DNA of 61,531 bases from a virus. Taxonomy: Duplodnaviria > Caudoviricetes. This document shows, one piece after another, positions 31,072-61,363 of the stretch; position 1 is the first letter of the stretch, and each line of letters opens with the position of its first letter. The notes under the pieces are model-generated. The model made no database searches and was not told the origin of the DNA. It was given only the letters and a program-made list of their open reading frames with translations. The stretch covers positions 1 to 61,531 of IMG/VR virus record IMGVR_UViG_3300049157_000049; one strand, 5' to 3'. The translations under genes and the position numbers were made by a program.

Positions 31072-33699
31072 CTATTCTTTGATGTCTGCGAGGTTATAGC
31101 CAAAGCCGCTATCAACTTCAACAGGTACTGACAGCGGCACAGCGTTAATCATGAGGTCTTCCATCATGGTTTTTGTGTTGTGTTTCTCATCTGGCGAATC
31201 CGGTGTTTCCACGGTCAGGTCATCATGAATCTGTAGCAACGGAAACACTAACAGAGTGGACGCCGCCACTTCTTCCATGACGAGATTCATGGCGCGTTTG
31301 ATGATCTCTTGCGCGGTTCCTTGGATACGGAAGTTGATTGCGGCACGCTCCGCTTCGAATCTCGTATAGGCGTTCTCCGAGTGGATGCCCGGAAGGATCC
31401 GTTTACGGCCGAGCTGGGTGCGCACGTATCCGTGGCGACGGCAATATTCTTTGGACTCTTCCATGTACACCTTAACACCTGAAACCAGCTTAAGATACTC
31501 CTGTAGAAACTCTTCACATTTTGTGAGTGGCCAGTTCAGTCCTACTTTATTCAATGACAGATAGAGCTTTTTAGCGCCCCCTCCGTACACCGTAAGAAAC
31601 CCAATTGTCTTTGCTGGGAACCTCTGCGAACCTTTATCGACGGCATCAACAGGTATATCCCAGATCATTGCGGCGGTTTTGGAGTGTTGGTCCTCTCCAT
31701 TGCGAAACGTCTCGCACAGAAACGGGTCACCGGAGATGTGAGCGAGCACACGCATCTCAATACCGGAGTAATCTGCGCCGAACATGATGTGGCCGGCACG
31801 GACGATAAACGCTTTCTTGATACGCTTGCCGAGCTCCGTTCGGGCGGGCAACGCGAGCACGTTTGGATCGAATGCAGACAGTCGCCCGGTTATCACGCTT
31901 GTAATGCGGAAATTAGGGTGAAGCGTACCGTTCTTGACGTACTCAGGGATCTTATCCGCATATGTGCTTTTAAGCTTTAGCAGCCCCCGATATTCCAGCG
32001 TTTTGCTTAGAAGCCAGTGCGCAACCTCCCACGATTCGGACTCCTCAGTGTCGAGCTCCAACATGTTAATCAGCGTTTGGATGTTAGGCTCATTCAAGCT
32101 AGGCTGGCCTGAATCCGTTTTCGTCGGGGGCATTGGTATATTACCGAGACCGTCATAGAGAAATTCCGTAAGTTGTTTTGACGAATTTAGGTTCAAGTCT
32201 GTCCCCAGCTTATCCTTAATCTCACCATGGATCCCTAGCATCTTACTCATAAGCTCATCTGACAGCGTCTTGAGCGCCTCCAGATCGGGATAAAGCCCGT
32301 ATTCCTGCATGCGATTGATAAACGTAATGGCACCTAGGTCGTTCTGTATGCTTTTGCCTAGCTTATTACGTCGGATCTCCTCTTCAAGGATCGGCAATAC
32401 CTCATACGTCGCATGTGCGTCTCGGGCGGAGTAGTATATCGCATCTTCGAGCGGGATATCATCGAGAGTCGGCTCGGGCATATCGCCAAACTTTTCAATG
32501 GCGGGCGCTTTATCCGCATGGTCCCATTTCTTCCAACGCTCTCGTAGATCTGCTTTCTTGATTTTGTCTTCCGCGAGATCAGATAGAAGCCTGTCGAGCT
32601 TGCGATTCAATGGCCACGGTTTCTTTGCAACCATCTTCCCGCCTTTGAACTCGGTACGCGGCGGAGTCGGTCCCCAGTCGTAATCCGCTATCTCCATTAT
32701 ATACTTGAACGCAAGGCTTGCGGACGGCTTAGCAATCATGTCTCTGTAGGATTTCATCTTCATGCCGCAATGGCGCATGGCGAGGGGCTTCAAGCCCTGC
32801 GGCTCTACTTGTAATTGGTATGACAATACCTGGCTATCCGTAAACTGCATACGTTCCACACAGAGAACTCCAAGAACCTTAAGCATACGAATATCGTATA
32901 GCGCATTATGGTAAATTATCCGGGGGCGATTCCGATTAAGCGCGTCGTCGAACGCTTTTATCAAACGGGCGCCATTGGGTCCATGCAGTCGAATGACGTA
33001 AGCAACGCCAGATTCAGAGCAAAAACTCAGCCCCCAAGGGTTGTAAGGCGTCCCTTCAGTATCGACAGCAACCGATCCCTTCAGCTTGCGTCTAAGAAGC
33101 TTCACGGCAACTGGTACAGACATCTTGTTGATATCAATGTATTTGGGAGATGGGTGTTTGTCTCGAATCCTCTTAAGCGGGAGCTCCCCCCTTAGGTAGC
33201 GGCCTAATTGTCTATAGTCGTACTCGATGAAAGGCTGTAGATCGTGGTTATGCATCCCTCCGGCTGGGTGGTAGAGCGGTACAACCCACCCTTGATAGCC
33301 AGTGGCCTTTGAGCGCGCCCATTGGGCTTTCCCATGGACCACATCCATCGAACACCGGGGGCCTAAAAAGAACCGCGCGGAAAACGCTCCAACCGCACCG
33401 ATGATGCCCGGGTTTACCTCCTCAATCTCCGCGCTCAGCTTGCTTACGTCTCGGGAGATCTCCCAAGGTAGGGGATCCGGGTCGCCTTCTTTGTAGTCTT
33501 TAACCAGGTTGGTTTTGTAGTACGAGTATTTCCGTATCCCTGCCGCTGCCATGTAGCGATCTTGCTCGCGGCCAGATGCGCCCACAAATGGAAGCCCAAG
33601 CTCGGCTTCCGTCTTGCCAGGGCGCTCTCCGACAACCATTAGCTCCGCAGGGACGGGGCCATCCCCGGGCACCCAGATCTGCTTAGGCTTACGATTCAT
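31072..33699 (-). CDS. polA: Family A DNA polymerase with N-terminal uracil-DNA-glycosylase-like domain and 3'-5' exonuclease
   Basis: UDG: VPGDGP..AELMVVGERPG..E...G.PFVGASG, YHPA. Exo: VAVDTE, HNALYD, YSARDA. Pol: TGRLS, ADYSGIEMR, AKTIGFLTVYGGG, QIHDD. Confidence 0.96.
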   Translation of the reverse strand: MNRKPKQIWVPGDGPVPAELMVVGERPGKTEAELGLPFVGASGREQDRYMAAAGIRKYSYYKTNLVKDYKEGDPDPLPWEISRDVSKLSAEIEEVNPGIIGAVGAFSARFFLGPRCSMDVVHGKAQWARSKATGYQGWVVPLYHPAGGMHNHDLQPFIEYDYRQLGRYLRGELPLKRIRDKHPSPKYIDINKMSVPVAVKLLRRKLKGSVAVDTEGTPYNPWGLSFCSESGVAYVIRLHGPNGARLIKAFDDALNRNRPRIIYHNALYDIRMLKVLGVLCVERMQFTDSQVLSYQLQVEPQGLKPLAMRHCGMKMKSYRDMIAKPSASLAFKYIMEIADYDWGPTPPRTEFKGGKMVAKKPWPLNRKLDRLLSDLAEDKIKKADLRERWKKWDHADKAPAIEKFGDMPEPTLDDIPLEDAIYYSARDAHATYEVLPILEEEIRRNKLGKSIQNDLGAITFINRMQEYGLYPDLEALKTLSDELMSKMLGIHGEIKDKLGTDLNLNSSKQLTEFLYDGLGNIPMPPTKTDSGQPSLNEPNIQTLINMLELDTEESESWEVAHWLLSKTLEYRGLLKLKSTYADKIPEYVKNGTLHPNFRITSVITGRLSAFDPNVLALPARTELGKRIKKAFIVRAGHIMFGADYSGIEMRVLAHISGDPFLCETFRNGEDQHSKTAAMIWDIPVDAVDKGSQRFPAKTIGFLTVYGGGAKKLYLSLNKVGLNWPLTKCEEFLQEYLKLVSGVKVYMEESKEYCRRHGYVRTQLGRKRILPGIHSENAYTRFEAERAAINFRIQGTAQEIIKRAMNLVMEEVAASTLLVFPLLQIHDDLTVETPDSPDEKHNTKTMMEDLMINAVPLSVPVEVDSGFGYNLADIKE

Positions 33700-41476: not shown

Positions 41477-42484
41477 TTACTCATCTGGTAGAATAAGGGC
41501 GGAGAGGGGCCGAACGTATGAAAGGACGCGCACCTGTATCTCACCAAACACCGGCCCTGTGGCGGCCTGAGAGACATCGATCCGTAACAGCCCGTTGTCT
41601 ACCCCCGATCCCGAGCTCGGAGCGAGACAGCGGCGCGCGTAGGACGTGGCATCGGGTATTTTGCGCGCGGCATTGTCGGATGTGGAGAGTGTCGGCCCGG
41701 TCGCGTACATGTCCACCCAAGAGGACCCGTCCCATTTGAAAACGTCTAAGTTTATATCAGTGTTAGGGTTAGCGTCCGTGAAGAGTCCCACATCTTCCAC
41801 ACGCGCCGCGTCCCAAATACGATGCAGGAGCTTGGCGCCCGTCGTGATCCCTGATCCGAACTGGTAGTTGAACGTCTCGCGTCTCGGGATTGCCGGGATT
41901 GTGTCTGCGGGTGGAACGGCACCGATTAGAACCGTAGGCTGAGAGACGTACATGTCGCCAGTAGCGGCCAGCTCCGCCTGCAGAATGAGCTTGTCAGCGT
42001 TCGCGGCGATGGTGTGAGTCAGAGTCATCAACTGCCAGTCGTCATCGCCGTCGTGGGCGTCTGTGCGCGTCGGTGAGCCTGTGCCGCCGTCATTCAGCGC
42101 GATCTTGGCGTTTGTGGAGTCGGATTTGACCCAGACTGCGACGACGATCGGCACGCCATCGAGCCCGTCGTCATAGGATGCGGTGGTCAAGATGTTGTAA
42201 TCGAGCGAGTCCGTACCCGAACCCGAGTAGGTCATTTTCGTTGCGAAATCCCCCTTTTTCCGAGTGGTATCCGCGAGCCCGGTCCCGGTGCGCGCGATCG
42301 TCGGGCTGCCTGACTTTCCCCAGAGAGCCGGGGGGTTGGCGTCTCCGTTGTGCCAGATGAGGAAATCGGAATTCGCGATGAGGTTGATGCCGAACAGGGA
42401 TTGGTCAATAGCCTGAAAGTTGCTCCGGACGTCCGCCGAGACGGTTTTGGCGCCGTCTGCAGGCTTGTTGCGGTTGTAGGTCAT
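41477..42484 (-). CDS. Putative tail fibre/receptor-binding protein with carbohydrate-binding-like domain
   Basis: VRSNFQAID anchor-like segment; NLIANSDF..W; VWVKS...WQLMTLTHTI. Confidence 0.65.
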   Translation of the reverse strand: MTYNRNKPADGAKTVSADVRSNFQAIDQSLFGINLIANSDFLIWHNGDANPPALWGKSGSPTIARTGTGLADTTRKKGDFATKMTYSGSGTDSLDYNILTTASYDDGLDGVPIVVAVWVKSDSTNAKIALNDGGTGSPTRTDAHDGDDDWQLMTLTHTIAANADKLILQAELAATGDMYVSQPTVLIGAVPPADTIPAIPRRETFNYQFGSGITTGAKLLHRIWDAARVEDVGLFTDANPNTDINLDVFKWDGSSWVDMYATGPTLSTSDNAARKIPDATSYARRCLAPSSGSGVDNGLLRIDVSQAATGPVFGEIQVRVLSYVRPLSALILPDE

Positions 42485-42774
42485 GGGCGTCTCCGTATGT
42501 GCTGGTCTACGTCATCGTGCAGCTTTTGAATCTGGCACCCAAGGCTCTCAAAGCGTCGGGAGTGGCGTCTCAGGCGCGCCACACGGTGGGACCACCGAGC
42601 GAGCATGCTTCGCAGCTCCTCAAACGGCAACGGGGCGACGCGCCTTCGGTGCTCTAACATCTGGGATTGCAGCGCTTCCAACTCGCTGGACTCCGCGTCG
42701 GTGAGCTCTCCATTGATGTCCTTGTCAATCAGCGCGCATCGGCGCGCGTTCTTCGCATCGGTCCATCGCGTCAT
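42481..42774 (-). CDS. Small helical hypothetical protein
   Basis: ATGA overlaps on both sides. Confidence 0.65.
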   Translation of the reverse strand: MTRWTDAKNARRCALIDKDINGELTDAESSELEALQSQMLEHRRRVAPLPFEELRSMLARWSHRVARLRRHSRRFESLGCQIQKLHDDVDQHIRRRP

Positions 42775-43178
42775 TTCAGCTTGCCCTTTTTACGGCCGGC
42801 CCGACCCCGACCTCTCCCGCGACCCGGGCCGGAGTCGTCATCGCCCCCGCCACCACCGCCCGATTGGAGGATTTCCGGTAGGTCCATCCGCCGCGCGAAG
42901 TCGCGCACGATCTTGTGGTACTCCGCACGCGCCAACTTGCGGCCGGCCGCAGCGAGCTCAGGCGGTAGCTCGGTCAGCCGGTTGATGTTTTCCTCCAACG
43001 ATAATTGTATCAGCATATCAATGTTGTCGCGAGAGGCGGCGATACCCAGCTCGTGAAGCGCCGACGTAACCCCTTGCTTCGTAAGGCTATAGGCTTGTTT
43101 GATCGCCTCAAGCGCTTTCCGGTCGATGAATTTCTTTTCATGGTCTGGGTCCGCTAAGGGCTTAAAGTTGAATGACAT
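42771..43178 (-). CDS. Hypothetical protein with G6/RG-repeat tail; candidate rSAM accessory
   Basis: GAGGGG RBS; directly after the rSAM gene. Confidence 0.65.
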   Translation of the reverse strand: MSFNFKPLADPDHEKKFIDRKALEAIKQAYSLTKQGVTSALHELGIAASRDNIDMLIQLSLEENINRLTELPPELAAAGRKLARAEYHKIVRDFARRMDLPEILQSGGGGGGDDDSGPGRGRGRGRAGRKKGKLK

Positions 43179-43202: not shown

Positions 43203-44324
43203 TCACGCTTTGTAGCTGAGCTTGCCCTCAATTTTAGCACCTAAATGAAGCCCTGCAAAGATCGATTGCATCGACTGGCACCAGCCGGGAGCGATGTCGT
43301 AGCGGTTTTTCGGGTCATGGCCATCCTGTCCTATGTAACGACAGTGGCATCCACCAAAACTGACAGGGTTCGCCGCGCAGTCCCCACAATCGAAGCCCTT
43401 TGGTGTCCGCATCTGGGAGTTTTTGATCCCACTGACTTCTGTAAGTCGGGTCTGGTTAATGACGGGGTCGTGGAATACGTCACCCACTTTGTAATATTCT
43501 GCGGTGCCTTCCGCCACACCCGGCTCGAACGCTTTGAACGCCATCTCTTGGCTCGGGTACAGATAGCCTTCCGGTGTTAACGCAAGCATTGATAGCCCAG
43601 TTCCGCACGGCTGCAGAGGTTTTGAACTACGAATGTAAGTTTCGTAGAATTTACCAGCCCAATTTGATGACATGGATTTCCGTATGCACAACCGCATCAC
43701 CCGCTTCATGAAATCTTGTAGCATGATTCGGGACTCCGGCTTCCATTCTTTGAGCCAATTGATGTTGAAATTTAGTTTCTTGAATCCGCGGTCGATCATC
43801 CAGTGGAGATCATCTGTCGAGAATGGAACATCTGGGTCAAGTTGCCAAGCGATCTCGAGACCGGGTCTCCATTTGAGTAGGGACTCGGGGTCTATTACGT
43901 CCCATGAAGGTTTTCCTTTGTAGTAGAAACGCTGCTTGTCGTGTATCCATGGTGGGCCGTCGAGAGACAGTAGCATCCCTACCTTATGGCTATCCATGAA
44001 TGACATAAAATCATCGTCGAGCATGGTGCCGTTTGTGGTGATTGACCATTTCAAATTAAGAGGGGAGTTAGACCATTCCGTCACGACCTTTTTGATGAGG
44101 GGTTTATTGAGAAGGGGTTCGCCTCCATACCAAATGATGTTGAGGTTTTTGTCCTTCTTACACCAATCGTTGATGAGCCATTCAAACGCGCGATCGGCAG
44201 TCCTTGGCGGCATCATCTTGAATAGTCCCGCATTCTTTTGCCATTTCCATTGGTGACTGCCCTGGTAGCAATAACTACAATCCAAGTTGCATGTTCTCGT
44301 GTTGACAAGCCAAAGTGTTTTCAT
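43203..44324 (-). CDS. Radical SAM enzyme with SPASM-like domain (anSME/peptide-maturase type), ~373 aa
   Basis: CNLDCSYC (CxxxCxxC), YGGEPLL, TTNGT, SLDGP..HD..R; C-terminal PCGTG..LTPEG.LYP, CGDC, GGCHC, WC. ATG 44324 overlaps the upstream TAA. Confidence 0.95.
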   Translation of the reverse strand: MKTLWLVNTRTCNLDCSYCYQGSHQWKWQKNAGLFKMMPPRTADRAFEWLINDWCKKDKNLNIIWYGGEPLLNKPLIKKVVTEWSNSPLNLKWSITTNGTMLDDDFMSFMDSHKVGMLLSLDGPPWIHDKQRFYYKGKPSWDVIDPESLLKWRPGLEIAWQLDPDVPFSTDDLHWMIDRGFKKLNFNINWLKEWKPESRIMLQDFMKRVMRLCIRKSMSSNWAGKFYETYIRSSKPLQPCGTGLSMLALTPEGYLYPSQEMAFKAFEPGVAEGTAEYYKVGDVFHDPVINQTRLTEVSGIKNSQMRTPKGFDCGDCAANPVSFGGCHCRYIGQDGHDPKNRYDIAPGWCQSMQSIFAGLHLGAKIEGKLSYKA

Positions 44325-47300
44325 TATAGATCTTCGTCTCCGGACTCTCTGCCTGATTGACAGATTGACTGACATTGCGATTGGCAATGGGTTTGACACC
44401 CTACCTGACAGTTCAGTTCACACGTAGATTGGCAATTCAACTCACAGTTAGATTGACAGCTAACCTCGCATGTAGACTGGCACGTTACCTGGCACCCGGT
44501 CTGGCAAGTGATTTGGCAACCAGACTGGCACCCTTGTTGGCAAACAGTTTGACATGACGATTCACACGGTGATTGGCAACCGAGCTCACAAGCTGTTTGG
44601 CAGGAAGACTCACACGGAGTTTGACAGCCCCCGCCCTCACACCCTCCCTGACAAGCAAGCTCACACGTAGCCTGACATGAGCTTTGACATGTGTCCTGAC
44701 AAGTCAGCTCGCACGTCGATTGACAGGCAAGTTGACAGGTATCTTGGCACGCACTCTGGCATGCAATTTGACATGATGCTTCGCAAGTCTCTTGGCAAGC
44801 GATTTCGCACGTATCCTGGCACGATTGTTGGCACGTTGACTGACAGGATGATTGACAGAATCCTTGACACTCATTAACACACGCTTGGCTCGCAACCGTT
44901 ACGCGATCGTCAGTCGCGGTGAACTGTACCAGGCCCGACAGCGCGTCTTTCGATAGAGATATAATCCGGAAAATTTCATTTGAGATTTGGCCCGACTTAC
45001 CGAGTCCTCTTCGCTTCAAGATCTTAAACTTGTCACCTACTTCCTTGCGCATCAACTTCCCCCCGATGACTGTGCCTTGTATCTTGCGCGCAGCAGATGA
45101 TGACAGTTCGAGAATCCGTGACGCTAAGGACTCCGCATTGTCCGTGATCTTTAGATACGTCTCTACAGGTTTTATGTCCGGACGTCCCAGTAATACGGAA
45201 ACTGACGTGTCGGAGCGTTCAACGGACTCAAACGTACCGCGCGAGGGGTCTTGGTCGAAATCCACACGGATCTTAGCGAATACCTCATTTGAGGCTCTTG
45301 ACGAAGAGAAATCAGAAATATCGTAATCAAACACAGTAGTTATATTGTCGGCTACTGTACCTACATAAATCTGATAGAAGATTTTGCCTGAGCCATCAAT
45401 GATGATGTTCCCGAGATTACTACGCTCCAATGTGTCAAAGATTTCGCTTGTGCTTGTGCTTTCACGGAGATAGATGCTAAGAGATTCCGCAGCGGTATCT
45501 CGAGCGAACAAAAAGCTAGTCGTGTCGATTGCGCTCGACGGTTTACCCATGAAGCGCACAAGGAGCGTCTGGAGAATGTCGGCCCCTATCTCAATAAGAG
45601 CATCTGCGGTGCCCGTGAAGGTTCCGCTAGCGTCGTCTCGATACCCTTTAGCGTCCGTTCGCAGGATGTGATCGCGATCAACGTCGTCAAATATTGCGTT
45701 GTCGGCTTCATAGCTTAGCGACCCCGTGTTGTCGTCCCCGAGATTGAACCCTAGCAGCCCCCAACCAGTGGAGCTAGAATGGGACCCCGTTTTTGTAAGT
45801 AGGTTAGCAGTTCCGGCATCCTTTGAAACCGTGATTTGATGCGTGGTATTACTGTATGCACAATTCCAGTCGGCCGCGCCAGCGTCTCTTAGCTGCGTCT
45901 GCACATGTGCTGCTAAAGACTGCGCCGTGTAGAGTCCCGACGTCAACTCGGCGGTAAGCTCCGCACCCCCTTCATTGAAGTCCAAACGAGAGTTGGTGTC
46001 GAGCACGCGGTATGGACCCACATCGCGAGAGATAGTGAATCTACCGTTGTCAACATCCGTTGTATAGTCTGTCCCATCGACAAGCTCTAGCCGCTCGGTC
46101 GTTAACCTTAACCCTGCGAATTCCTCAGACGTGTAAGCATAGACTGTGGTTATTTCTTTGATACCGTTTGGGGCTCTACTTACATCCGCGACCTCATAGA
46201 CCCCATAATCGTTTGCAGTTACGTTTACACGAAAAGGTGTGATGTTGGATTTCACCCCGAAAAATACAGGTTTTATACGTCCGTCAGTTTTTGTAAGGCT
46301 TAAATTGGGAAGGTCGTCTTCAGAATAGAGATCCGTCGCAATCTGCTGATGGAAGAACGTTCGCTCGTCATCCAAATCGAACGTCGCTATGTCATCTGTG
46401 ATGTTGATGCGCTGGATTAGGCCTGTCATTTGAGCGAAATACTGGTTGACGTCGAGCTCAACAGTCGTTCCATCAGACGCCTCAATGGCACCCCCGATCT
46501 TGACGATGACAGACTGACTCATCCATTGTAGTTCGGCAACCAAACGTTCGATGAATCCATCGGAATTGATTAACGACACGTCCCCACTACCTATTTGTTT
46601 CCCTGCGAAATAGATATCAGGCGAACCCGTCTCAAGACTAGGGATGGAGGAATTGGAGACCCGGGGGTCATAAGGGTAGTAACGATAGATTCTCTCCATC
46701 ACGATACCGTCATACAACACGATCGATGTACCGCTGCCGCCCGATTTGGTTTCGAACGTTACGACATGATTACCACTACTCTCTGCGCGAAAATCCACGA
46801 TGAATCGTTTCCAAGCGTCTCCGGTATTGTTGAGGTCAATATCTCCATCAAAACTCGCAACGTCTTCCCAATTGGTCCCGTCTGTGTGTACAAATGCATT
46901 GGGTGTTGCGAAGTTATCACGGACCCGTATTACCCCCTGCGTGGCGTTCGTGCCTATCGTTTTGTAATACCCGTGTAGACGATAACGGTGGCCGGAAACT
47001 AATGTAATGTTCCCTGTAGTTAGAATAGTCTGCCCACCGACTGTTGTATCAGCCGCTGTAAGCCTCGCTGCGGAAGAATTTATCTTTACGTCAGTGGTTT
47101 CTTCGTCGACGGTGCCCGTTCCTGTCTTGGTGAAATTGTCAGGCGAGCCTCCAGTCCAATTTTCAAAGTCCCCGTTTGTTACGAGATTGTTGCCGGATAG
47201 ATCGGGAAGAATTAGTGCTTTTGACGCGAAATGAAATGGCACAACGGCGGCTACTGTGGTGTCTGACGGATCGCTGCCATCCGAAAGATTGACGTAGAGC

Positions 47301-48349
47301 TGTCGCACTTGGTCCCAACAATTAATGACGGTCCCGGGGCCGGTCCCTGTCGCGGTTGTTCCCGCAGATGTGAAATCGCCGCTGCTACCCCGATTGCTGG
47401 TGAAGTCCCCATTCACGAAAAAGATGAGCGGCTGCACGCCGTCCGCAAGGGAGCCATCTTCGCCAAGATTTTTTGGCGTACTCCCAGAGAAAAACTTGGC
47501 TAGCTCGGTTGAATCATTCGGATTATGTAGTACTGGATGGAACCACAGATTCGCCAGCTCACCGTTTAGTTGTTGAGTGCCCGCTAGTTGCCCGATTTCG
47601 TACTCACCCCCGGTCAAATCGATATCGTTCGCGGGGCTAGCTGTGGACGATCCGACAACTACACCGTCAACCGCTACGTAGGTTGTTGCTGATGTATCGA
47701 AACCTACCATAACATGATGCCAGTCCCCATCCGCCGTAACAGTGACTGAGCTGGTGATGGTAAACATCGTGTTATTTGACGAATCTTTTGCTATGACACG
47801 GATATTGTCGTCATTGTCACGTAGCACGTTGATCCGACCGCTACCGCTAACGTTGTGTGCGAAGATTTGTTGTGTAGTCCCGTCCCCACCGTTGAATTTA
47901 ACCCACGTTGAGAAAGTAGCTACGCTGCTATCAAACGCGCCGGACAAGCTTGCTATTTCGTATTGTGTGTTTGTACCGTTGAAGACAGCGGACTCCCATG
48001 CGGGTGCATCCCAAAACGAGCCATCATCCCAGTTGATAACCGGCGCATCAAAAACCTCATCCACATCGTAGAAAAATGTCCCAACGGTCGCGATGCAATC
48101 CGCGAGGGTGTCAGCTCTTGAGAGTACCTCATCGGCGGTTTTGACGGATATCACATCGCGCACCACGTCATCAAATACGAAGTCGTGCACGGAAACGTAA
48201 GTCGTTCCTGAGTGTAACGACCAATCAGCGACTTCGACTACCGGGCGCAACTCAACAGTCGCTACGCGATTCGGGTCTGTTAAATCGAGAAGCTCATCTA
48301 GATCGGGCGAACCCGTCGTGACACCCAGCCTTCCGTTTCGTGCAGCCAT
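44324..48349 (-). CDS. Large tail-tip/host-specificity protein (~1341 aa) with LamG-like and CBM-like inserts and a C-terminal (CxxX)44 repeat
   Basis: Follows TMP and the Dit-like gene; TGATG coupling at 48349. LamG-like: FNG..TFSTWV..DGDWHHV..VDG..GELANL. CBM-like: NLVTNGDFE. Confidence 0.85.
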   Translation of the reverse strand: MAARNGRLGVTTGSPDLDELLDLTDPNRVATVELRPVVEVADWSLHSGTTYVSVHDFVFDDVVRDVISVKTADEVLSRADTLADCIATVGTFFYDVDEVFDAPVINWDDGSFWDAPAWESAVFNGTNTQYEIASLSGAFDSSVATFSTWVKFNGGDGTTQQIFAHNVSGSGRINVLRDNDDNIRVIAKDSSNNTMFTITSSVTVTADGDWHHVMVGFDTSATTYVAVDGVVVGSSTASPANDIDLTGGEYEIGQLAGTQQLNGELANLWFHPVLHNPNDSTELAKFFSGSTPKNLGEDGSLADGVQPLIFFVNGDFTSNRGSSGDFTSAGTTATGTGPGTVINCWDQVRQLYVNLSDGSDPSDTTVAAVVPFHFASKALILPDLSGNNLVTNGDFENWTGGSPDNFTKTGTGTVDEETTDVKINSSAARLTAADTTVGGQTILTTGNITLVSGHRYRLHGYYKTIGTNATQGVIRVRDNFATPNAFVHTDGTNWEDVASFDGDIDLNNTGDAWKRFIVDFRAESSGNHVVTFETKSGGSGTSIVLYDGIVMERIYRYYPYDPRVSNSSIPSLETGSPDIYFAGKQIGSGDVSLINSDGFIERLVAELQWMSQSVIVKIGGAIEASDGTTVELDVNQYFAQMTGLIQRINITDDIATFDLDDERTFFHQQIATDLYSEDDLPNLSLTKTDGRIKPVFFGVKSNITPFRVNVTANDYGVYEVADVSRAPNGIKEITTVYAYTSEEFAGLRLTTERLELVDGTDYTTDVDNGRFTISRDVGPYRVLDTNSRLDFNEGGAELTAELTSGLYTAQSLAAHVQTQLRDAGAADWNCAYSNTTHQITVSKDAGTANLLTKTGSHSSSTGWGLLGFNLGDDNTGSLSYEADNAIFDDVDRDHILRTDAKGYRDDASGTFTGTADALIEIGADILQTLLVRFMGKPSSAIDTTSFLFARDTAAESLSIYLRESTSTSEIFDTLERSNLGNIIIDGSGKIFYQIYVGTVADNITTVFDYDISDFSSSRASNEVFAKIRVDFDQDPSRGTFESVERSDTSVSVLLGRPDIKPVETYLKITDNAESLASRILELSSSAARKIQGTVIGGKLMRKEVGDKFKILKRRGLGKSGQISNEIFRIISLSKDALSGLVQFTATDDRVTVASQACVNECQGFCQSSCQSTCQQSCQDTCEIACQETCEASCQIACQSACQDTCQLACQSTCELTCQDTCQSSCQATCELACQGGCEGGGCQTPCESSCQTACELGCQSPCESSCQTVCQQGCQSGCQITCQTGCQVTCQSTCEVSCQSNCELNCQSTCELNCQVGCQTHCQSQCQSICQSGRESGDEDL
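44351..44881 (-). repeat. Coding tandem repeat of 44 Cys-x-x-x units (12-nt period)
   Basis: CVNE CQGF CQSS CQST...CQSI CQSG; Q or E follows Cys in 43 of 44 units; one 5-residue unit (CEGGG). Confidence 0.97.
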
Positions 48350-49464
48350 CAGCCTAAAGACTCCTGAATTGGCACGGCGATGCGCCAATGGGTCGGGGGC
48401 ACTTCTGTAATAGCTAGTGGAGATGCGCTGTGACAATATAGCATATCGGTTGAGTCATTTTGCGGGTCGAAGAAAAAGAACAGCGGCCGGCCTATCCGCC
48501 GGTCCCCAGACATCGTCTCGAAACTTGTTTTGTCAGCGTTGGTCATGCCCATGAACTCGATGCTAAATTGGCGCGCAGCCTGCTTAACGTTTTGGAACCC
48601 TGCGCCTTGATCTGCTAACTGAATAGCTGTAAGCTCCACACGGTCGATCGCCATTTCGAAGGCGTGCGCCCGGGAAGGTTGAAAATAGGCGCCTACAAAA
48701 GCCACACCTATACTGTTGTACCCGGTGCTCGACTGCACATCGTCAAATTCAAGCTGCCAAAAGCGATAAGTCTGCTCACTGAAAAAATCTAAGCGGAAGG
48801 TGTCATCTGTGTTGCTATCTGCGAGCACTTGGCTGAACGCGGGAGAGATCCAGCTATCGGATGAATTGCCATGAAGGGTCACGGTCCCCGTGCTATCAAT
48901 ATTGTGGTCAAGCACGATACCCAGCTCTACCGTCTGCGCTTGGGGAAGGACATAAGTGATCCGATGGCGCGATTGGTGGCTGGCGTTATCCGCAGTGTAC
49001 GACGTAGCACCAGTGTCGTCCGCAGAGACATCGAACCCAAGATCCACACCAATAGATGTTGACGTGTTAGAACCTGTAGACCATTCAAGCCCTATCGTAT
49101 CTGACCCAGTATCTCGCGCGATTACAAATTTGTTCGTCGATGCGTTGTAGGTTACAGAATAGGTATTGTCAGTAGCCGCAGCGTCCATTTGGGTTTCAAT
49201 CTCAGCGGCCATTAACGCGCCCGTCGCGTAGTTGCCCGCTGTGATCGTTGCGGTGGCATCACCGGTGGTACCCTCGGTAAAATCTAATTTGTCATTATAC
49301 CCTGCGACGATAGTCCATCCTGTTTTCGAGCGCCATTGCTTGGAGCGCAGCTGATCAATTGAAAACTTCCCTTTGAAAGTGGGCTGCTCGCTTGATGCGG
49401 CAATCGTTGTTCCCGCGAATTGTAGGAAATTCTGCCATGCGAATCTTGGTGTGACGTCTGCCAC
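48349..49464 (-). CDS. Distal tail (Dit-like) protein with inserted domain
   Basis: Immediately downstream of TMP; C-terminal RQFSIEF...G..RPLFFFFDP pattern. Confidence 0.7.
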   Translation of the reverse strand: MADVTPRFAWQNFLQFAGTTIAASSEQPTFKGKFSIDQLRSKQWRSKTGWTIVAGYNDKLDFTEGTTGDATATITAGNYATGALMAAEIETQMDAAATDNTYSVTYNASTNKFVIARDTGSDTIGLEWSTGSNTSTSIGVDLGFDVSADDTGATSYTADNASHQSRHRITYVLPQAQTVELGIVLDHNIDSTGTVTLHGNSSDSWISPAFSQVLADSNTDDTFRLDFFSEQTYRFWQLEFDDVQSSTGYNSIGVAFVGAYFQPSRAHAFEMAIDRVELTAIQLADQGAGFQNVKQAARQFSIEFMGMTNADKTSFETMSGDRRIGRPLFFFFDPQNDSTDMLYCHSASPLAITEVPPTHWRIAVPIQESLG

Positions 49465-49472
49465 GATTCCCC

Positions 49473-52400
49473 CTAGAAATTTCTCACAGCGGACGGGTGG
49501 ATACGCATCGATCGCTGTTTGGAGCGCCGCTCGATTTCAGGAACCACCGCCCGCGCAACTTCTTTATCCCCGATCATAACAGGAACCACCAACGTAGTAG
49601 TTCCGCCGTTTCGCTGCCCGCGCCCGTCCTTGTCAAAACTGACGCGCTCGGGACCTGCCTCTCCCACGAGAAGGTTGGTGGGGCCGAATGCCGTAAAGGG
49701 CACTGCGGCGGCCGCCCGTCGCTGGCGCCGTGGGACCGGGACCTCACGGAAGCTCGGGATGGAGACGTCGGGTACCCGAATAGAGCCCGCCGCCCGAGCC
49801 GCATCCCGGAAAGTCGACTTCAAGACTCCCACTTGCTCAGCCGCTGTGCGTAGCCCCCCAACAACATCGGTTGTCATCACCGCAGTCAGATCCTTCGCCG
49901 CTTGCTGGGTGTCTTCCATGGCGGCGGTTGAGGTTTCCGCCTGGCCTTCGAGCTCAATGCCGAACGCCTCTGCCAGAGTCGTCATCCCCTCGAAATCCAC
50001 ACCGAGTCTCTCCGCAGCGCGAATCATGCGGAGAATCTGGAATTCACCAGCGGGGCCTAGCTGATCCATCACGGGGATAAGCTGCGCAACGTTGTCATTT
50101 AGGATGCGTTGCGCTTCCGACGCGGAAACTTGGCCGCGCTCCAAGAACGAAAACGTGTCCGCGATGCGCTCGGTGAACATGTCGAGATCTGCCGTACCGT
50201 CCGCCAGCGCTTCGCCGAAGATGCCCCCGAGGGAGACTTGGAGCGCCGTTTCGATGTCGCCACGGTTTTCCTTGATGCCTTCAATCGACTCCAAAAGTCC
50301 TTTAGATATAGCAGTTCCGAAGTTGTCCTTGATGGCGTCCTTGACGTTGGCCTTTTTGAAGATCTTGCCAATGAGCTTCGCGATGCCAAAGCCGCCCGCT
50401 ATCCCGCCACCGATGATAGCTGTCAGAGGATTCGTGAAGAAGCCCCCGAGGGAGCCTAGAATCCCCGCTCCGCCGCCAGCCGCCCCACCACCAAGCCCGG
50501 CGGCTCCCGCGGCGGCGCCTCCTCCTACTGTTGCCGCTCCGCCTCCCCCGCCGAAAAGCCCTCCAATCAGCCCGCCGATACCGCCAATGCCCCCAACACC
50601 GGGGACGCCACCGCCACCAATGCCCGTGATCCCCCCAAGAATTCCGCCTCCACGACCCCCTGTGAAAAGTCCGATGAGCTTGTTGACGGTACCTAGACCA
50701 GACTGAATAGTGCCGAGGAATTTCTCGACGAAGCGGATAGCCTTGCCGAGTGCAGATTCTGCAGAGACTCCGAAGTCATCCATAAGCCCCCTCAGACCAG
50801 ATGTGGCTCGCGACGACCGGTCGAGCGCCTCGTTCCATGTGGTGGTGAGCGGTGGGAGTCCCAGCAACGCCGCGTTCGCTTCCGTGCCGAACTTAGGGAG
50901 CTCCGCAGTGACGTCGCTGATCTCTTCCGGGAGACCCTTGATCGTGTCTTCCCACTCATCCGTCGTGAATACCATTCGCTCCATCGGCGGGAGGTTTGCG
51001 AGCGCTTTGCGGCCAACTTCTTCGATGCTCTTCGCCATCCGGCCGAGCTCCCCGTTGAGCTCGACCCCCTCTTGCTTCGCCGTTTTGATGATGTCCGTAA
51101 CCGAGCGGAGACCCTCCGCTGAGAGCTTCCGCCCTTGCGCATTCAAAATTTCTAGAGCTTTGTTTGTTCGTGTGATCTCTTTTTCGAGACCCCCTGTGCC
51201 GAGAGAGTCGACTAGTCCAAGCACAGAAGAATCAAGCTCATCGAATGTGTCATTGAGGTTTTTAAACGTGGTGGTAAGGTCCTGAGTAGTTTTGTCTACC
51301 TTTTTGGTTACGGACTCGCCAACCTTTGCGACCCCTTGAGATTCCCGCATCGCATTGATGTGATCGTTCATCGCTTTGCGAGCTTCTTTGAGCCCCTTCG
51401 TACTGAACTCGAATGACTTCCCTTGTTCACGGAACATGTCATTCGCTTTGCCGATGAGCCGGATGTCCTCCGCTTGGATGGGGGGATCGAGTTTACCGTC
51501 CATCGTGCGGCGAAGCCCCATCATAGATTCCATTGTGCCTGTGATGGCGTCCCGCATCCCAGTCATTTCTAGGATGAAATTCGTAGCCGCAAACGCCGCG
51601 ACGAAGACAACAAGCCCTGCGAGTATAGGATTCGCCGCAGCAAACTGCAGGAACATAGCCTTTGCGGCAATAAGAGCCTTCGCCATCCACGCAAGAAATA
51701 CTTTTCCTGCAACTGTGATTGCAGCAAACGCGATCGGAAGTTGCCCTGCTGCGGCCGTGAGCGCACCAATCGCTATGAGAAGGGGGCCGAGTGCAGCCAC
51801 TAGTAGGCCAATAACTACAATTACCGTGCGTGTTGTTTGGCTCCATTCGCCGAACCGAGTCACCATCGAAGCCAGCGACTCTAGCATCGGCTTGAAGACT
51901 TCCATCAAGTCCAGCAAAACAGGAATGAGCGCTTGACCGAGCGTGATGCCGATATCAATGATCTGATTCGCCAGCTTGATCAATTGAGACGCGAAAGTCT
52001 CAAAACGTTTCGCAGCCTCTTCATTCAACGCGCCCCCGTTTTGCGCTTGTTCCGCGGCCCTTTTCAACGCGTCGCCTAGAAGATCTGACGCGCTCGCCAC
52101 ACGCAACGATGCGTCTCTGACCCGAATCTGATTCAGCCCGAGCTCTTTCAAAACCTTGAAAGATGAGATCCCTTGCTTGTCGAGATTGCTAAGCCCTACA
52201 ACGAACGCCTCAATTGCCTTAGAGGAATCTTCCTTAAAGGCTTTCGCGAATTCGCTTGATGTCTGCCCGGCTACCGCCGCGAATTTCTGTAGTCTCGCGC
52301 CCCCCTCATCTACGGACGCCGCCAGATCGATGAACAGTCGGGAGAACGCAGTACCGCCCGCTTCCGCCTTGATACCGGCAGACGACAACACCGCACTGAA

Positions 52401-53051
52401 CGCGAGAATTTCGTCTTGACTTAGACCTATCTCTTTACCCGCCGCCGCCAGACGCAACGCAAATTCAACGATTTCGGACTCCGTCGACGCGAAATTGTTG
52501 CCGAGGTCCACGATTACATCACCGACGCGTTCGATATTGGTTCCATCTAAGCCGTCCGTGATGTTCGCAAATCTCGCAAGGGATTTCGCCGCGTCTGCAC
52601 TAGCAATATCTGTCGTGACGCCAAGCTTCGCCATGACGGTCGTAAACTCGACCAGACCATCCGCTTTGACGCCAACCTGACCGGAGACTTCCGCGATTTT
52701 GTTGAGCTCGTTCACGGCCACCGGGAGCGTTGATGTGGCCAGCTTGCGGAATTCACTCTCCAACTTAGCAAACGATGTGGTTGCGGTCTCGTTGACTGTC
52801 TTTTTGACACCGGCGAAAGAGGACTCGAAATCCGCCGCCATCTTAACGGACGCCCCCGCTATAAGGGCCATCGGCGCCGCAAGGCGTGTAATTTGTGACC
52901 CAACTTCGGTGATATCACGGCCCGCTTGGCGGACCTTTTTCGCCATCGATTGGAGGCTCTTAGGAACCCTTTTACGTTCTTTGTCGAACCCTTTTGTAAG
53001 GAGTTTTACGTCTATTGTGAGGGTGCCGAGCGATCGTGTTGGCCCTGCCAT
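49473..53051 (-). CDS. Tail tape measure protein (TP901-type core), 1192 aa
   Basis: ADFESSFAGVKKTV, LGNNFA.TESEI, AEAGGTA; Ala/Gly-rich helices; VGEAGPE near the C-terminus. Confidence 0.95.
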   Translation of the reverse strand: MAGPTRSLGTLTIDVKLLTKGFDKERKRVPKSLQSMAKKVRQAGRDITEVGSQITRLAAPMALIAGASVKMAADFESSFAGVKKTVNETATTSFAKLESEFRKLATSTLPVAVNELNKIAEVSGQVGVKADGLVEFTTVMAKLGVTTDIASADAAKSLARFANITDGLDGTNIERVGDVIVDLGNNFASTESEIVEFALRLAAAGKEIGLSQDEILAFSAVLSSAGIKAEAGGTAFSRLFIDLAASVDEGGARLQKFAAVAGQTSSEFAKAFKEDSSKAIEAFVVGLSNLDKQGISSFKVLKELGLNQIRVRDASLRVASASDLLGDALKRAAEQAQNGGALNEEAAKRFETFASQLIKLANQIIDIGITLGQALIPVLLDLMEVFKPMLESLASMVTRFGEWSQTTRTVIVVIGLLVAALGPLLIAIGALTAAAGQLPIAFAAITVAGKVFLAWMAKALIAAKAMFLQFAAANPILAGLVVFVAAFAATNFILEMTGMRDAITGTMESMMGLRRTMDGKLDPPIQAEDIRLIGKANDMFREQGKSFEFSTKGLKEARKAMNDHINAMRESQGVAKVGESVTKKVDKTTQDLTTTFKNLNDTFDELDSSVLGLVDSLGTGGLEKEITRTNKALEILNAQGRKLSAEGLRSVTDIIKTAKQEGVELNGELGRMAKSIEEVGRKALANLPPMERMVFTTDEWEDTIKGLPEEISDVTAELPKFGTEANAALLGLPPLTTTWNEALDRSSRATSGLRGLMDDFGVSAESALGKAIRFVEKFLGTIQSGLGTVNKLIGLFTGGRGGGILGGITGIGGGGVPGVGGIGGIGGLIGGLFGGGGGAATVGGGAAAGAAGLGGGAAGGGAGILGSLGGFFTNPLTAIIGGGIAGGFGIAKLIGKIFKKANVKDAIKDNFGTAISKGLLESIEGIKENRGDIETALQVSLGGIFGEALADGTADLDMFTERIADTFSFLERGQVSASEAQRILNDNVAQLIPVMDQLGPAGEFQILRMIRAAERLGVDFEGMTTLAEAFGIELEGQAETSTAAMEDTQQAAKDLTAVMTTDVVGGLRTAAEQVGVLKSTFRDAARAAGSIRVPDVSIPSFREVPVPRRQRRAAAAVPFTAFGPTNLLVGEAGPERVSFDKDGRGQRNGGTTTLVVPVMIGDKEVARAVVPEIERRSKQRSMRIHPSAVRNF

Positions 53052-59227: not shown

Positions 59228-60454
59228 TTACGATGCAGGGATCGAATCCCAAGTGACAGCAGTCTTGACCACAATCGCATCCGGCTGTCGAGTGATGATG
59301 TCAGTACGGATAACGTACCGAACGACCGTCTGCAGCATCGAGAACGAAGAGACGACGTTTGAGCCGTCGTGGTACGCCGCATCTTCAGAGACAGTGATTT
59401 CGATTCCACCCAGCGAACCGAGCACGATTTCCGCGAAGTCCACAAGGTAGAGCTCGGTTTCGTCCCCACCGCTTCCAAGGTTCCGGGGAATCTGTTTGGA
59501 GACGACGAACGGGAACCCGAAGAGCCGGCCCTGGTTAACCTCACTACGGAACACGGGATTGGCGTTCGCATCCAGCGCTGTAAAGAGCGCTTTCCACGTT
59601 CGCGGCTCCATAATCCACCCAACTTCGGTCATTGGGACGTTCGCGTCCATAAGAGCTTGAATCATCCCACCAAGATCGCTTACGACGTTGGTTACGTTGA
59701 CGGTGCTGTTCGCATCCGAAACGTTTCCAGACGACGCGAGATGACGAAGCCCCCGGGGCTGCCCGTCTGACCCATCCGCACGCAAGTAAGCGAGATCCGA
59801 CGCGAGCACGGCATCCATGACAACGTCGTCCCGCACGAACGCAGGGGCGTCCGTTGCGGCACTGATGATCAAGTCGTTCGAAATCGGCACGACACCCGCA
59901 TAGGTCTTCGGGATGAGCTGTACGGAACCGAATGCGGGTTGGGTGGCCGGCGCGTTTTGGCTCTCACCAATCCAGCCGCCAGACGCTCCAGTCGTGTGTT
60001 TTGGAATCCGGATCGAGCCGGTGCCGGACCCTGGCTCGAACGTGAGACGGCGGGGGTTGAACGCGCTGAAAACCTCCCGGTTGCGGAGTAGTTCGATAAT
60101 GTCGGGCGAGACCGCTTCCGTCAGAAGGAACCCACCGTCAGTAGCCGATCCGGCCGTGAGCGCCTTCTCAAATTCCGTGAGCCCGTGTTTGTCATCCTTG
60201 TACCATTTGGTCGCAGCGTACGCACCCGCGCGCTCCAGATTTCCTCGAGAATGCATGAGAGACAGAAGCAACTCGCCGCTTCTAGCTCTCTTATCCCTTT
60301 TTTCCTTGGCTTGCATGAAGTCGATGACTTGAGCGGTCGTGTCCGTCGCGGCTTCTTTCGCTTTGCGCTCCCGCTGTTCCTCTTTCTCAGCAATGCCGGC
60401 TTCCTTGAAGCATTCAGTCACAGCCTGTTGAATATCCTTAACCGTGAGACCCAT
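59228..60454 (-). CDS. Major capsid protein (HK97 fold)
   Basis: DGGFL...IIELLR, WIGE, PKT...VPISNDL, DG..GQP.GL, GRLFGFP. Confidence 0.96.
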   Translation of the reverse strand: MGLTVKDIQQAVTECFKEAGIAEKEEQRERKAKEAATDTTAQVIDFMQAKEKRDKRARSGELLLSLMHSRGNLERAGAYAATKWYKDDKHGLTEFEKALTAGSATDGGFLLTEAVSPDIIELLRNREVFSAFNPRRLTFEPGSGTGSIRIPKHTTGASGGWIGESQNAPATQPAFGSVQLIPKTYAGVVPISNDLIISAATDAPAFVRDDVVMDAVLASDLAYLRADGSDGQPRGLRHLASSGNVSDANSTVNVTNVVSDLGGMIQALMDANVPMTEVGWIMEPRTWKALFTALDANANPVFRSEVNQGRLFGFPFVVSKQIPRNLGSGGDETELYLVDFAEIVLGSLGGIEITVSEDAAYHDGSNVVSSFSMLQTVVRYVIRTDIITRQPDAIVVKTAVTWDSIPAS

Positions 60455-60472
60455 GATTTATCTCCTTACGAA

Positions 60473-61363
60473 TTAGTCCTGTAGTTTACCGGACTGATGA
60501 ACGGTGGTCATTTTCTTTCTTGCGGTAATTTCGGTCATGACGATTTGTTTCAGCTCATCCCTTGTTATATCGAGCGTTTCATCGTCCGAATCCTCCTCAT
60601 CGGCTTCGATGGAGGTTTCCGATTTTGCGTCACCCGACCCAACACGAAGGGTCTCGTTATCGTCTAGTTTGCGCGCGCTGGCCATGACAAGATCCTTAAT
60701 ATCAGGATCATACTGCATGAGCTCAAGCGTCACAGCGACCTCGTCGGGAATACCCGAGAGACTCGTCTGGGCGGGTGACACAACTTTTGCGAGATTATGA
60801 ACGTTTGATGCCTTGATTTTGTCGGCCATTTCGCAGATCCAATCTTTCATTGGGTTGATGTTGTAGCCTTGGGCTGAAGCTACCAGTATCGCGTCTGCGT
60901 TTGCGGGGATCGTCACGACACTCCACTCGGTAAGCTCTTGGCGCATGAAATTGATGCCACCACGTTCGTCATCAAACGAGAATTCGAGGGGGCGAAATCC
61001 GACGCTGGCGGCCTTTAGGAACCCACCCACGAGGAGCTGGAACACGGACTCCGCGAGAGGATTCTGCTCTGCCGTAGCAAACTGCGCCCGAGAGCGAATC
61101 TGGCGGGCGGTTTTGCGGAGTCGGATAGACCGGCCAATGGGCGGCGTGTCCCGGGAGTGCATCCACAGGACCAAGGGGTTTTGCTCGAACGCGGCAGTCT
61201 CCCACCCCGCAGGGTTGATCACGTCGTTGTCACGATCGACTGAACCGGTCGTGATTATAAAATCAGCAGTACGCGCCTCGCGGTTTACCGCTTTGACGCT
61301 TGAGCCGAAGTTTTTAATGACAAAATCCGGGGCATCAGTCATATGGCTAGCCTCCTCTTGCAT
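60473..61363 (-). CDS. HK97-family prohead protease
   Basis: VDRDNDVI, NPLVLWMH...PIG, AASVGF, ELTEWSVVTIPAN..A. Confidence 0.93.
   Translation of the reverse strand: MQEEASHMTDAPDFVIKNFGSSVKAVNREARTADFIITTGSVDRDNDVINPAGWETAAFEQNPLVLWMHSRDTPPIGRSIRLRKTARQIRSRAQFATAEQNPLAESVFQLLVGGFLKAASVGFRPLEFSFDDERGGINFMRQELTEWSVVTIPANADAILVASAQGYNINPMKDWICEMADKIKASNVHNLAKVVSPAQTSLSGIPDEVAVTLELMQYDPDIKDLVMASARKLDDNETLRVGSGDAKSETSIEADEEDSDDETLDITRDELKQIVMTEITARKKMTTVHQSGKLQD

Follow-up and report, generated by a model that had tools for sequence, protein, structure and literature searches.

IMG/VR record IMGVR_UViG_3300049157_000049 is a linear viral sequence of 61,531 bases, estimated to be 75% complete, and its whole length (the window) was analysed here with respect to a pair of overlapping genes, for a tail protein and for a radical S-adenosylmethionine (rSAM) enzyme. 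All window coordinates given in the text refer to features on the minus strand. The first gene of the pair (44324..48349, including the stop codon) encodes a predicted tail-tip or baseplate-hub protein of the gpJ/pb3 type, 1341 aa long from its ATG (1370 aa if an upstream TTG is used), that ends in a long array of Cys residues at a period of four. The second (43203..44324) encodes a 373-aa rSAM enzyme. The genes are joined by TAATG (44322..44326), in which the stop codon of the tail-protein gene overlaps the ATG of the rSAM gene. An earlier note on this DNA had drawn attention to the overlap, and to an rSAM gene with a CxxxCxxC motif within the tail module, and both are present as described. 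It proposed that the enzyme modifies the array, and the comparisons below support that interpretation, at the level of sequence, as a candidate system.

The array (C-Q/E-x-x) occupies residues 1157-1333 (44351..44881). The C-terminal 185 aa of the protein contain 44 Cys, as against three in the preceding 1156 aa, and these are arranged in 42 four-residue units plus one five-residue unit, CEGGG (unit 21, 44627..44641), which is the single break in register. Cys is followed by Gln in 32 units, by Glu in 11 and by Val in one, i.e. by Gln or Glu in 43 of 44. CxxxC pairs number 42, whereas none of 10,000 shuffles of these 185 residues has more than 20. After the array comes an acidic C-terminal tail of 8 aa (44327..44350); relatives end in 0-8 residues at this place, mostly with a Glu. 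The array matches the CXXX-repeat target family TIGR04117 at 8.8e-9 with 35.4 bits, under the cutoff of 50 bits, and the layout typical of that family, a period-4 Cys repeat adjoining a radical SAM gene, is found here. In the DNA, no two of the 42 units of 12 nt are identical, the mean identity over codons 3-4 is 0.30, and both Cys codons are used (TGT:TGC = 25:19); Tandem Repeats Finder (TRF) returns three weak short rows only. Recent DNA slippage was rejected as an origin of the array since all units differ, the variable codons have diverged and the Cys codons are mixed. Because the DNA units have diverged while the protein pattern was kept, the array appears to be an old, selected protein pattern. 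A chance open reading frame (ORF) was also rejected, as full-length conservation is seen across 37 proteins. The earlier note's account of the array (44 Cys at period four with one break at unit 21, Gln or Glu after 43 of them, no recent slippage) thus holds on the sequence, with both genes placed on the minus strand.

Pfam recognises little in the body of the tail protein: a Laminin_G_3 (ConA-like lectin) domain at residues 125-271 (47537..47977; PF13385, 2.2e-14) and a weak CBM_4_9 match, and nothing else. In the alignment the Laminin_G_3 domain is an insertion that is missing from shorter relatives. The fold was modelled on the relative P0141 (1120 aa, 47% identical), the window protein being over the length limit of the folding tool, with an alignment of 34 homologues. 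The AlphaFold2 (AF2) model has a mean pLDDT of 80.8, and Foldseek against the PDB matches it to T5 pb3 at 5.7e-17, and also to the DT57C baseplate and to lambda gpJ, Chi, JBD30 and the gene transfer agent (GTA) hub. Because the model matches tail-tip structures, the tail protein is predicted to be a trimeric hub that closes the tail tube, with its C-terminus pointing away from the virion. Its gene follows the tape-measure gene and one in the distal tail (Dit) position, and with the modelled hub fold this places it among the siphophage hubs, in line with the tail-tip identity first proposed from gene order. It resembles the hubs of T5 (pb3), lambda (gpJ), Chi, JBD30 and GTA in gene position, body fold and an outward C-terminal extension; to our knowledge, none of these five carries a Cys-array terminus. 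A tblastn search with the whole tail protein, array included, gave no match among 50,697 GenBank phage records, and neither did blastn with the 5.1-kb region against GenBank phages. For the array of P0141, AF2 draws two helices of about 80 residues with a turn at the Gly-rich break, at block-mean pLDDT of 46-77. We take this hairpin as a weak hint, because period-4 repeats attract helical predictions and confidence is low.

The rSAM enzyme matches PF04055 at 46.9 bits (cutoff 29.5). Its cluster motif CxxxCxxC lies at residues 12-19 (44268..44291), with C12, C16 and C19 invariant in 30 of 30 clade members. Since the protein starts 11 residues before this motif, it has no N-terminal RRE (recognition element for RiPPs, peptides made by ribosomes and modified post-translationally); in agreement, its alignment with CteB begins at CteB residue 98, past the RRE of that enzyme, and at position 97 of the SCIFF maturase model. 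The C-terminal region, residues 240-349 (43278..43607), contains six Cys (C240, C313, C316, C326, C328 and C349), all invariant, as are H327 and S258 in the same 30 members. The SPASM pattern comprises seven Cys for two auxiliary clusters. S258 aligns with a CteB Cys, and at a second canonical Cys position aligned with CteB the window enzyme has Ser, where some clade members have Cys (pattern [SC]).

Pfam matches beyond PF04055 are limited to Fer4_12; the SPASM model PF13186 gives none at E<=0.01. The C-terminus is called SPASM-like on the basis of full-length NCBIfam alignments and fold similarity. In NCBIfam, the PapB ranthipeptide maturase ranks first (NF047865; 7.1e-41, 140.5 bits; query 3-327 on model 4-317 of 330), followed by a nif11-like peptide maturase (2e-34), the QhpD-type family (2.7e-33, 115 bits) and, aligned at near full length, the SCIFF maturase (3.3e-30); CcpM is also among the five best-scoring families. 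The CXXX-repeat maturase TIGR04115 matches at 1.4e-21 (77.4 bits; query 2-314 on model 2-317 of 359, near full length) and the family of anaerobic sulfatase-maturating enzymes (anSME) at 5.3e-20, and cyclophane- and sactipeptide-forming families are among the weaker matches. Compared with the curated cutoffs, the scores in bits are 140.5/340 for PapB, 105.4/425 for TIGR03974, 77.4/350 for TIGR04115, 61.8/525 for TIGR04463 and 115/453 for the QhpD-type family. A profile of the 30 clade members finds CteB as the best solved structure (5e-38), with anSME at 7e-22, and the AF2 model of the enzyme (pLDDT 91.4) has Foldseek TM scores of 0.69-0.72 to CteB, ChlB and anSME. The kinship to thioether maturases named in the earlier note (PapB at 7e-41, CteB at 5e-38, QhpD-type) is therefore sound. 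Its SPASM-like assignment stands on alignment and fold but not on PF13186, and of the models that it listed PF04055 is above its cutoff, whereas TIGR04115 and TIGR03974 remain below theirs. As for the CXXX-repeat accessions, TIGR04115 is indeed the maturase, but the target is TIGR04117 and not TIGR04114. An assignment of the enzyme as an anaerobic sulfatase maturase was rejected: neither a sulfatase nor a matching motif is present, and anSME families score below PapB. A complex prediction for the enzyme with tail-protein residues 1085-1341 scored 0.00, which is no verdict, and it is used neither for nor against an interaction.

Co-occurrence of array and enzyme

A search for relatives of the rSAM enzyme gave 507 proteins with E<=0.001 among 1181 candidates. 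The clade is sharply bounded: of the 120 top-scoring proteins listed, 90 reach E<=1.2e-67, and the one after these is at 1.4e-22. Six distinct close relatives are found in IMG/VR, out of 42 loci encoding any relative, and a metagenome scan found at least one close relative, on the same contig as locus L006. In all six, the upstream ORF (1114-1505 codons, stop to stop) is homologous to the window tail protein and ends in an array before the rSAM gene. With the window included, array and rSAM lie within 30 nt of each other in seven of seven family loci with usable flanks, the junction being TAATG in three, ATGA in two and a gap of 10 or 28 nt in the remaining two.

The tail body (residues 560-1156) was used for a second search, in which the 8000 best candidates were scored and 37 homologous proteins retained. 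Arrays of 29-44 Cys are present in 29 of these, one has a stub of three Cys, two have degenerate arrays and five are array-less. As the array-less relatives end exactly at the junction, the array can be regarded as an add-on module. No rSAM was seen in three of three array-less IMG/VR relatives with 9.7-10 kb of downstream sequence, nor in a fourth (L209), of which the downstream flank is only 0.9 kb. The earlier note had named array homologues that usually lack an rSAM neighbour as an outcome adverse to its proposal, and the pattern found is the opposite: both elements in 7/7 loci, and no enzyme with the three array-less proteins. A proxy for co-location, identical size of the longest contig, pairs a clade rSAM with 22 of 32 array-bearing homologues vs none of the five array-less ones. 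By the same proxy, the three-Cys stub protein P0135 (contig of 64,705) is apparently on one contig with the clade rSAM P0018; the stub may be a minimal substrate or a decaying array. The rSAM-array pair P0029 and P0149 lies on one 5.1-Mb contig, so the relative P0149 is probably prophage-borne.

Over 1034 units from 31 homologues, Cys occupies position 1 in 98%, and position 2 is Gln in 66% and Glu in 27%; residues at position 3 are diverse and those at position 4 small (T, S, A or G), with free variation at both. The near-fixation of positions 1 and 2 while positions 3 and 4 vary indicates that the pattern is under selection. Array length is 165-176 residues in most relatives. A Gly-rich five-residue unit lies near units 18-20 in most of them, is missing from at least five (P0149, P0151, P0152, P0157 and L008), and some relatives use many five- and six-residue units. 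The two degenerate arrays have spacings of 4 and 8, with Gln kept where Cys is lost. The Pfam label PF27846 is assigned to 22 of the 37 tail homologues, all 22 of them array-bearing, and to none of the five array-less ones. It may denote a recent family for the array or for the tail protein, which bears on novelty; the full-text literature searched contains no mention of it.

Arrays are not confined to this family. The last 200 residues of the tail protein, searched against 1.84 billion representatives, matched 743 proteins at E<=0.001, 210 at 1e-10 and 57 at 1e-30. The first 60 new array matches examined all have stretches of five or more period-4 Cys units, with up to 166 Cys, in mutually unrelated architectures. 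A search with an alignment of array segments gave 30 viral loci, which were scanned with the rSAM HMM at a threshold of six C-Q/E-x-x-C for arrays: six belong to the window family, three are below the threshold and 21 encode other array proteins. Five of the six family loci have an rSAM, and the contig of the sixth ends inside the array. Among the 21 others, an rSAM was detected in the fetched flanks of 15, on the same strand in 14. It is directly downstream of the array gene in five loci, directly upstream in two, 0.6-1.9 kb downstream in six and about 7 kb downstream in one, and in the last it is partial and on the opposite strand. The top NCBIfam family for ten of these enzymes is PapB in seven, nif11-type in two and ScfB-related in one, all below cutoff. 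A rough base rate comes from a tblastn search with the rSAM of the window, which matched 21 of 50,697 GenBank phage records. Three of the 21 were opened: two have a SCIFF peptide with its maturase, and the third, Phass-1, is without an array.

The other viral array proteins contain P2 gpI baseplate, Laminin_G_3, InlB-type repeat and amidase PHROG domains, or match nothing, and in some the array is internal with folded domains after it. A 763-aa protein with 119 Cys, encoded at 6336-8624 of L220 (a complete record of 35,579 bases with no detectable rSAM), mixes C-Q/E-x-x arrays with a Cys/Gly-Glu repeat of about 11 residues. The array protein at 2674-4167 of L214 ends in a run of His-Ser-Asp triplets after the Cys array, which may be a metal-binding tail. 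The rSAM beside the array protein of L222 (8576-10960, plus strand) is 795 aa long, and its residues 43-382 match the intein-containing rSAM model NF038136, so that an intein-like insert may interrupt this phage maturase. A distant tail-tip relative with both an array and an rSAM was found on a 150-kb metagenome contig.

Period-4 Cys ORFs are present near more distant rSAM relatives at 10 of 36 viral, one of 80 cellular and three of 79 metagenome loci. Contigs of cellular genomes encode distant rSAMs only (24-37% identity on the best segment, about 24-27% near full length). Cys-rich ORFs inspected at nine of the 80 cellular loci and at three metagenome loci yielded nothing useful except, in L048 (3571-4116), a Cys-rich protein resembling the methylamine dehydrogenase light chain (MauA), encoded at a distance of about 3 kb from an rSAM of Sphingobium that shares 25% identity with the window enzyme. 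Arrays of a second type, C-S/T-G-x, rich in Gly and Ser and without Gln or Glu, occur in proteins of about 130-280 aa beside distant rSAMs (L016 8224-8958, L017 5777-6616, L029 8359-8757 and L113 8130-8894), on jumbo-sized viral contigs of 134-181 kb and in one Ruminococcaceae metagenome-assembled genome. In two faecal GenBank records labelled "Bacteriophage sp.", a classical SCIFF peptide (L243 8420-8632; L244 1002-1157) lies directly 5' of a SCIFF-type maturase; these are either phages with a SCIFF system or bacterial fragments.

Gene neighbourhood in the window

The minus-strand order is tape-measure protein, Dit-position protein, 1341-aa tail protein, rSAM, two small ORFs, a 335-aa protein and then replication genes, namely a helicase and a family A polymerase. 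The tape-measure protein (49473..53051, 1192 aa) matches PF10145 at 2e-19 and the PHROG tape-measure family phrog_13339 at 1e-92. The 371-aa protein at 48349..49464 is placed at the Dit position by gene order, its only match being to phrog_8610, of unknown function, at 1e-10; locus L001 has a homologous gene of 369 aa at the same place. Downstream of the rSAM, the ORFs of 135 aa (42771..43178) and 97 aa (42481..42774) have no Pfam or PHROG match, and the conserved 335-aa protein (41477..42484) is weakly tail-fibre-like (phrog_15641, 4.8e-6). The latter is 33% identical (2e-43) to a 373-aa ORF in L001 that is directly 3' of the rSAM gene of that locus. As it stands between the hub gene and this conserved tail-fibre-like gene, the rSAM gene of the window lies inside the tail module.

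The family A DNA polymerase (31072-33699, 875 aa) carries an N-terminal domain of the uracil-DNA-glycosylase superfamily and a 3'-5' exonuclease domain. The portal gene (3-1514) runs off the start of the window, and the head protease and major capsid genes (59228-61363) are found at its end, an arrangement that suggests a circularly permuted record. The window may therefore be closer to complete than the estimate of 75% suggests.

Candidate function and alternatives

What is observed is how the two genes are built and placed, to which families they are related, and that array and enzyme are inherited together. The interpretation that we favour, with a probability of roughly 55%, is that the rSAM installs serial Cys-to-Gln/Glu thioether crosslinks in the cytoplasm and so converts the array into a redox-inert, stapled distal fibre. 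In this scheme, the hub protein would bear a C-terminal substrate module of 44 C-Q/E-x-x units, and the translationally coupled, RRE-less, PapB/CteB-like enzyme would be made beside the hub in the infected cell and work along the unfolded array while this is in the reducing cytoplasm, either ahead of tail assembly or in the course of it. In each unit a hydrogen would be abstracted from a side-chain carbon of Gln or Glu, and the carbon joined to the sulfur of Cys to give a ranthionine-type thioether. The partner of a Cys could be the Gln/Glu three residues before it, an NxxC-like spacing (NxxcB links Cys23 to Asn20), that five residues after it, like the Cys32-Thr37 crosslink of SCIFF, also five residues apart (both in excerpts of PMC8326336), or the adjacent residue, as PapB accepts Cys-Xn-Asp with n=0. 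The product would stay on the protein, where small covalent rings, one after another, would make up the distal fibre of the trimeric tail tip. A fibre built in this way would be rigid and resistant to proteases and, in contrast to a ladder of disulfides, could not be reduced, which would be important to a virion that has to survive in anoxic, reducing sediment. The habitat label "marine sediment metagenome" comes from the only sequencing run listed for this DNA, a DNA run that is perhaps the window's own source, and is not independent support; RNA runs with this sequence are absent from the listing.

Several points weigh against thioether stapling. That the array is the substrate is inferred, and so are the chemistry, the residue that serves as acceptor and the benefit. 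The enzyme belongs to no curated thioether-maturase family, its scores being far below every cutoff, and its auxiliary-cluster region is SPASM-like but atypical in its Cys pattern, so its clusters may differ from those of characterised thioether synthases. Gln as an acceptor is proposed (for CrpA) but unproven, and the retention of Gln without Cys in the degenerate arrays would fit a structural role of Gln at least as well as an acceptor role. The AF2 helical hairpin, at its pLDDT of 46-77, would need no crosslinks. Finally, the survey for arrays beside rSAM genes that was called for in the earlier note had a mixed outcome: 15 of the 21 other array loci have the enzyme but six do not, and none was found in the five of these for which whole records were searched, one of them a 100%-complete genome with terminal repeats. 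Because that complete array-bearing genome shows no rSAM, arrays can exist without a phage-encoded enzyme.

These last points are also the ones that speak for a self-sufficient array, i.e. a structural or metal-binding module (Fe, Zn, Fe-S or disulfides) along a trimeric fibre, for which the rSAM is dispensable or which it neighbours while acting on another target. We consider this improbable. Besides the complete genome and the four further records with arrays and no rSAM, it draws on the occurrence of arrays in hundreds of protein clusters of many architectures (the 743 matches at E<=1e-3) and on the regularity of the predicted hairpin. A further point in its favour is that iron ions are lined up on His pairs in the tip of the T4 long tail fibre. 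For CrpA, metal binding is suspected by its authors (PMC13692751, in excerpts). However, co-location in 7/7 family loci and 15/21 loci elsewhere, set against 21 of 50,697 GenBank phage records, is difficult to account for on this view, array-less relatives are without the enzyme, and phages that lack one could use an enzyme of the host. A period of 4.0 would also fit the Cys core of alpha-helical bundles poorly, and disulfides would not be expected to last in reducing habitats.

It is also unlikely, in our view, that the rSAM modifies the array by some other chemistry, such as sactionine (alpha-carbon) thioethers, oxidation of Cys of the anSME kind to formylglycine or a dehydro residue, epimerisation or crosslinks between carbons (C-C). 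The enzyme fold matches anSME as well as CteB (TM 0.70-0.72), and the anSME family matches, the unreached thioether cutoffs, the atypical SPASM Cys pattern and the cyclophane and sactipeptide families among the weaker matches all leave room for it. Against this, four of the five best NCBIfam families (PapB, QhpD-type, SCIFF maturase and CcpM), and CteB, are Cys-directed peptide maturases, and by sequence CteB is the closest structure, well ahead of anSME. The conserved pair in each unit is a Cys and a Gln/Glu with abstractable beta and gamma hydrogens, and the array lacks both the aromatics needed by cyclophane formers and the sulfatase motif of anSME substrates. We give very little credence to a third alternative, in which the tail protein is a giant RiPP precursor and its array, once modified, is cleaved off to become a free peptide such as a toxin, signal or decoy and does not stay on the virion. 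The layout is RiPP-like, with a long "leader" and a C-terminal Cys-rich "core", and the junction before the array is conserved; but no protease or exporter was recognised beside the genes, the two small ORFs matching nothing, the internal arrays with folded domains after them in other proteins fit a spacer or shaft rather than a leader-core precursor, and the near-constant length of 165-176 residues in most relatives is as expected for a structural ruler.

Relation to known systems and significance

SPASM-type enzymes that install thioethers on targets with Cys repeats are known already, in PapB, CteB, QhpD, CrpC and the CXXX-repeat families, and the window system can be set against each; what follows on these systems draws on excerpts of the papers cited. 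PapB forms serial thioethers from Cys to Asp/Glu side chains and accepts Cys-Xn-Asp/Glu with n=0-6 (PMC9413430), and it works without a leader, a delta-RRE variant having been described (PMC12715619). It is the best-scoring named family for the window enzyme as for seven of ten rSAMs at other viral arrays. However, PapB has an RRE and the window enzyme none, and at 140 vs 340 bits the latter is not a member of NF047865. The PapB substrate PapA (freyrasin) is a small peptide with six motifs, whereas here 44 units are fused to 1156 aa of virion protein, with Gln as the candidate acceptor in most of them. CteB (TIGR03974; PDB 5WGG and 5WHY) is the closest structure by sequence and fold, and the SCIFF core has units of the C-Q-x-x type, seen in the SCIFF peptides of the two "Bacteriophage sp." records. 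It differs from the window enzyme in its N-terminal RRE and in a SPASM Cys that is an invariant Ser in the window clade, and SCIFF is a peptide of about 45 aa with one crosslink reported.

Two systems modify proteins rather than small peptides. QhpD introduces Cys-Glu (gamma-carbon) and Cys-Asp (beta-carbon) thioethers into a protein subunit (PMC8326336), and the modified QhpC stays in the final assembly; the QhpD family (TIGR03906) is the third-best NCBIfam match here. In QhpC, a small subunit of an enzyme, the crosslinks are three, and only the N-terminal half of the window enzyme (residues 2-146) aligns to the QhpD-type model. In Methanococcus voltae, CrpC makes ranthionines on the 28.8-kDa Cys-repeat protein CrpA, which has C-X-X-Q/D motifs (Dieter et al. 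2026, PMC13692751). To judge from the excerpts of that paper, CrpC/CrpA (TIGR04463) comes close to the window pair in several respects, being a SPASM rSAM with a large protein substrate that has C-terminal Cys repeats, Gln as one putative acceptor and a product that stays a protein. The differences are that CrpA belongs to an archaeal cell and not to a virion, that its motif has 17 residues and is present ten times, and that an RRE is present in CrpC, which engages an N-terminus resembling a leader. With QhpC and, since 2026, CrpA as protein substrates (PMC13692751, in the text available), the earlier note's statement that known substrates are small peptides or enzyme subunits is dated. The CXXX-repeat systems (TIGR04115 maturase, TIGR04117 target and TIGR04119) share with the window a period-4 Cys target and an rSAM, but they are annotated for stand-alone bacterial targets and both window matches are weak and below cutoff. 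The full-text literature searched contained no description of these systems under their TIGR accessions or names, one unrelated paper aside.

The window system departs from these in its candidate substrate, a module of a phage structural protein, in an enzyme without RRE and in the large number of sites. Covalent crosslinking is known from phage capsids, e.g. the self-catalysed isopeptide chainmail of HK97, and we know of no case in which a RiPP-type rSAM acts on a tail protein. None was found in the full-text literature either, a search that covered PMC13692751 apart from its Supplemental Data set 1.

Taking the viral loci together, we suggest, at odds a little short of even, that period-4 Cys arrays have been built into the tail-tip, baseplate (P2 gpI-like) and fibre proteins of many uncultivated phages, from siphophages to those with jumbo-sized contigs, and that these phages encode their own RRE-less, PapB-like rSAM, which makes runs of thioether rings in the arrays. 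This would be an unrecognised class of virion-protein modification, a redox-inert replacement for disulfides in anoxic habitats that is installed serially and leader-free at dozens to more than 100 sites per chain. If this is true, it would bring a new post-translational chemistry into virion assembly and explain how tail tips are hardened where disulfides cannot survive. Some of the rSAM genes of phages that are regarded as "auxiliary metabolic" would become structural-maturation genes, and the leader-free pairs of enzyme and substrate, with tens of thioether staples on a full-size protein, would be of immediate interest for peptide and protein engineering.

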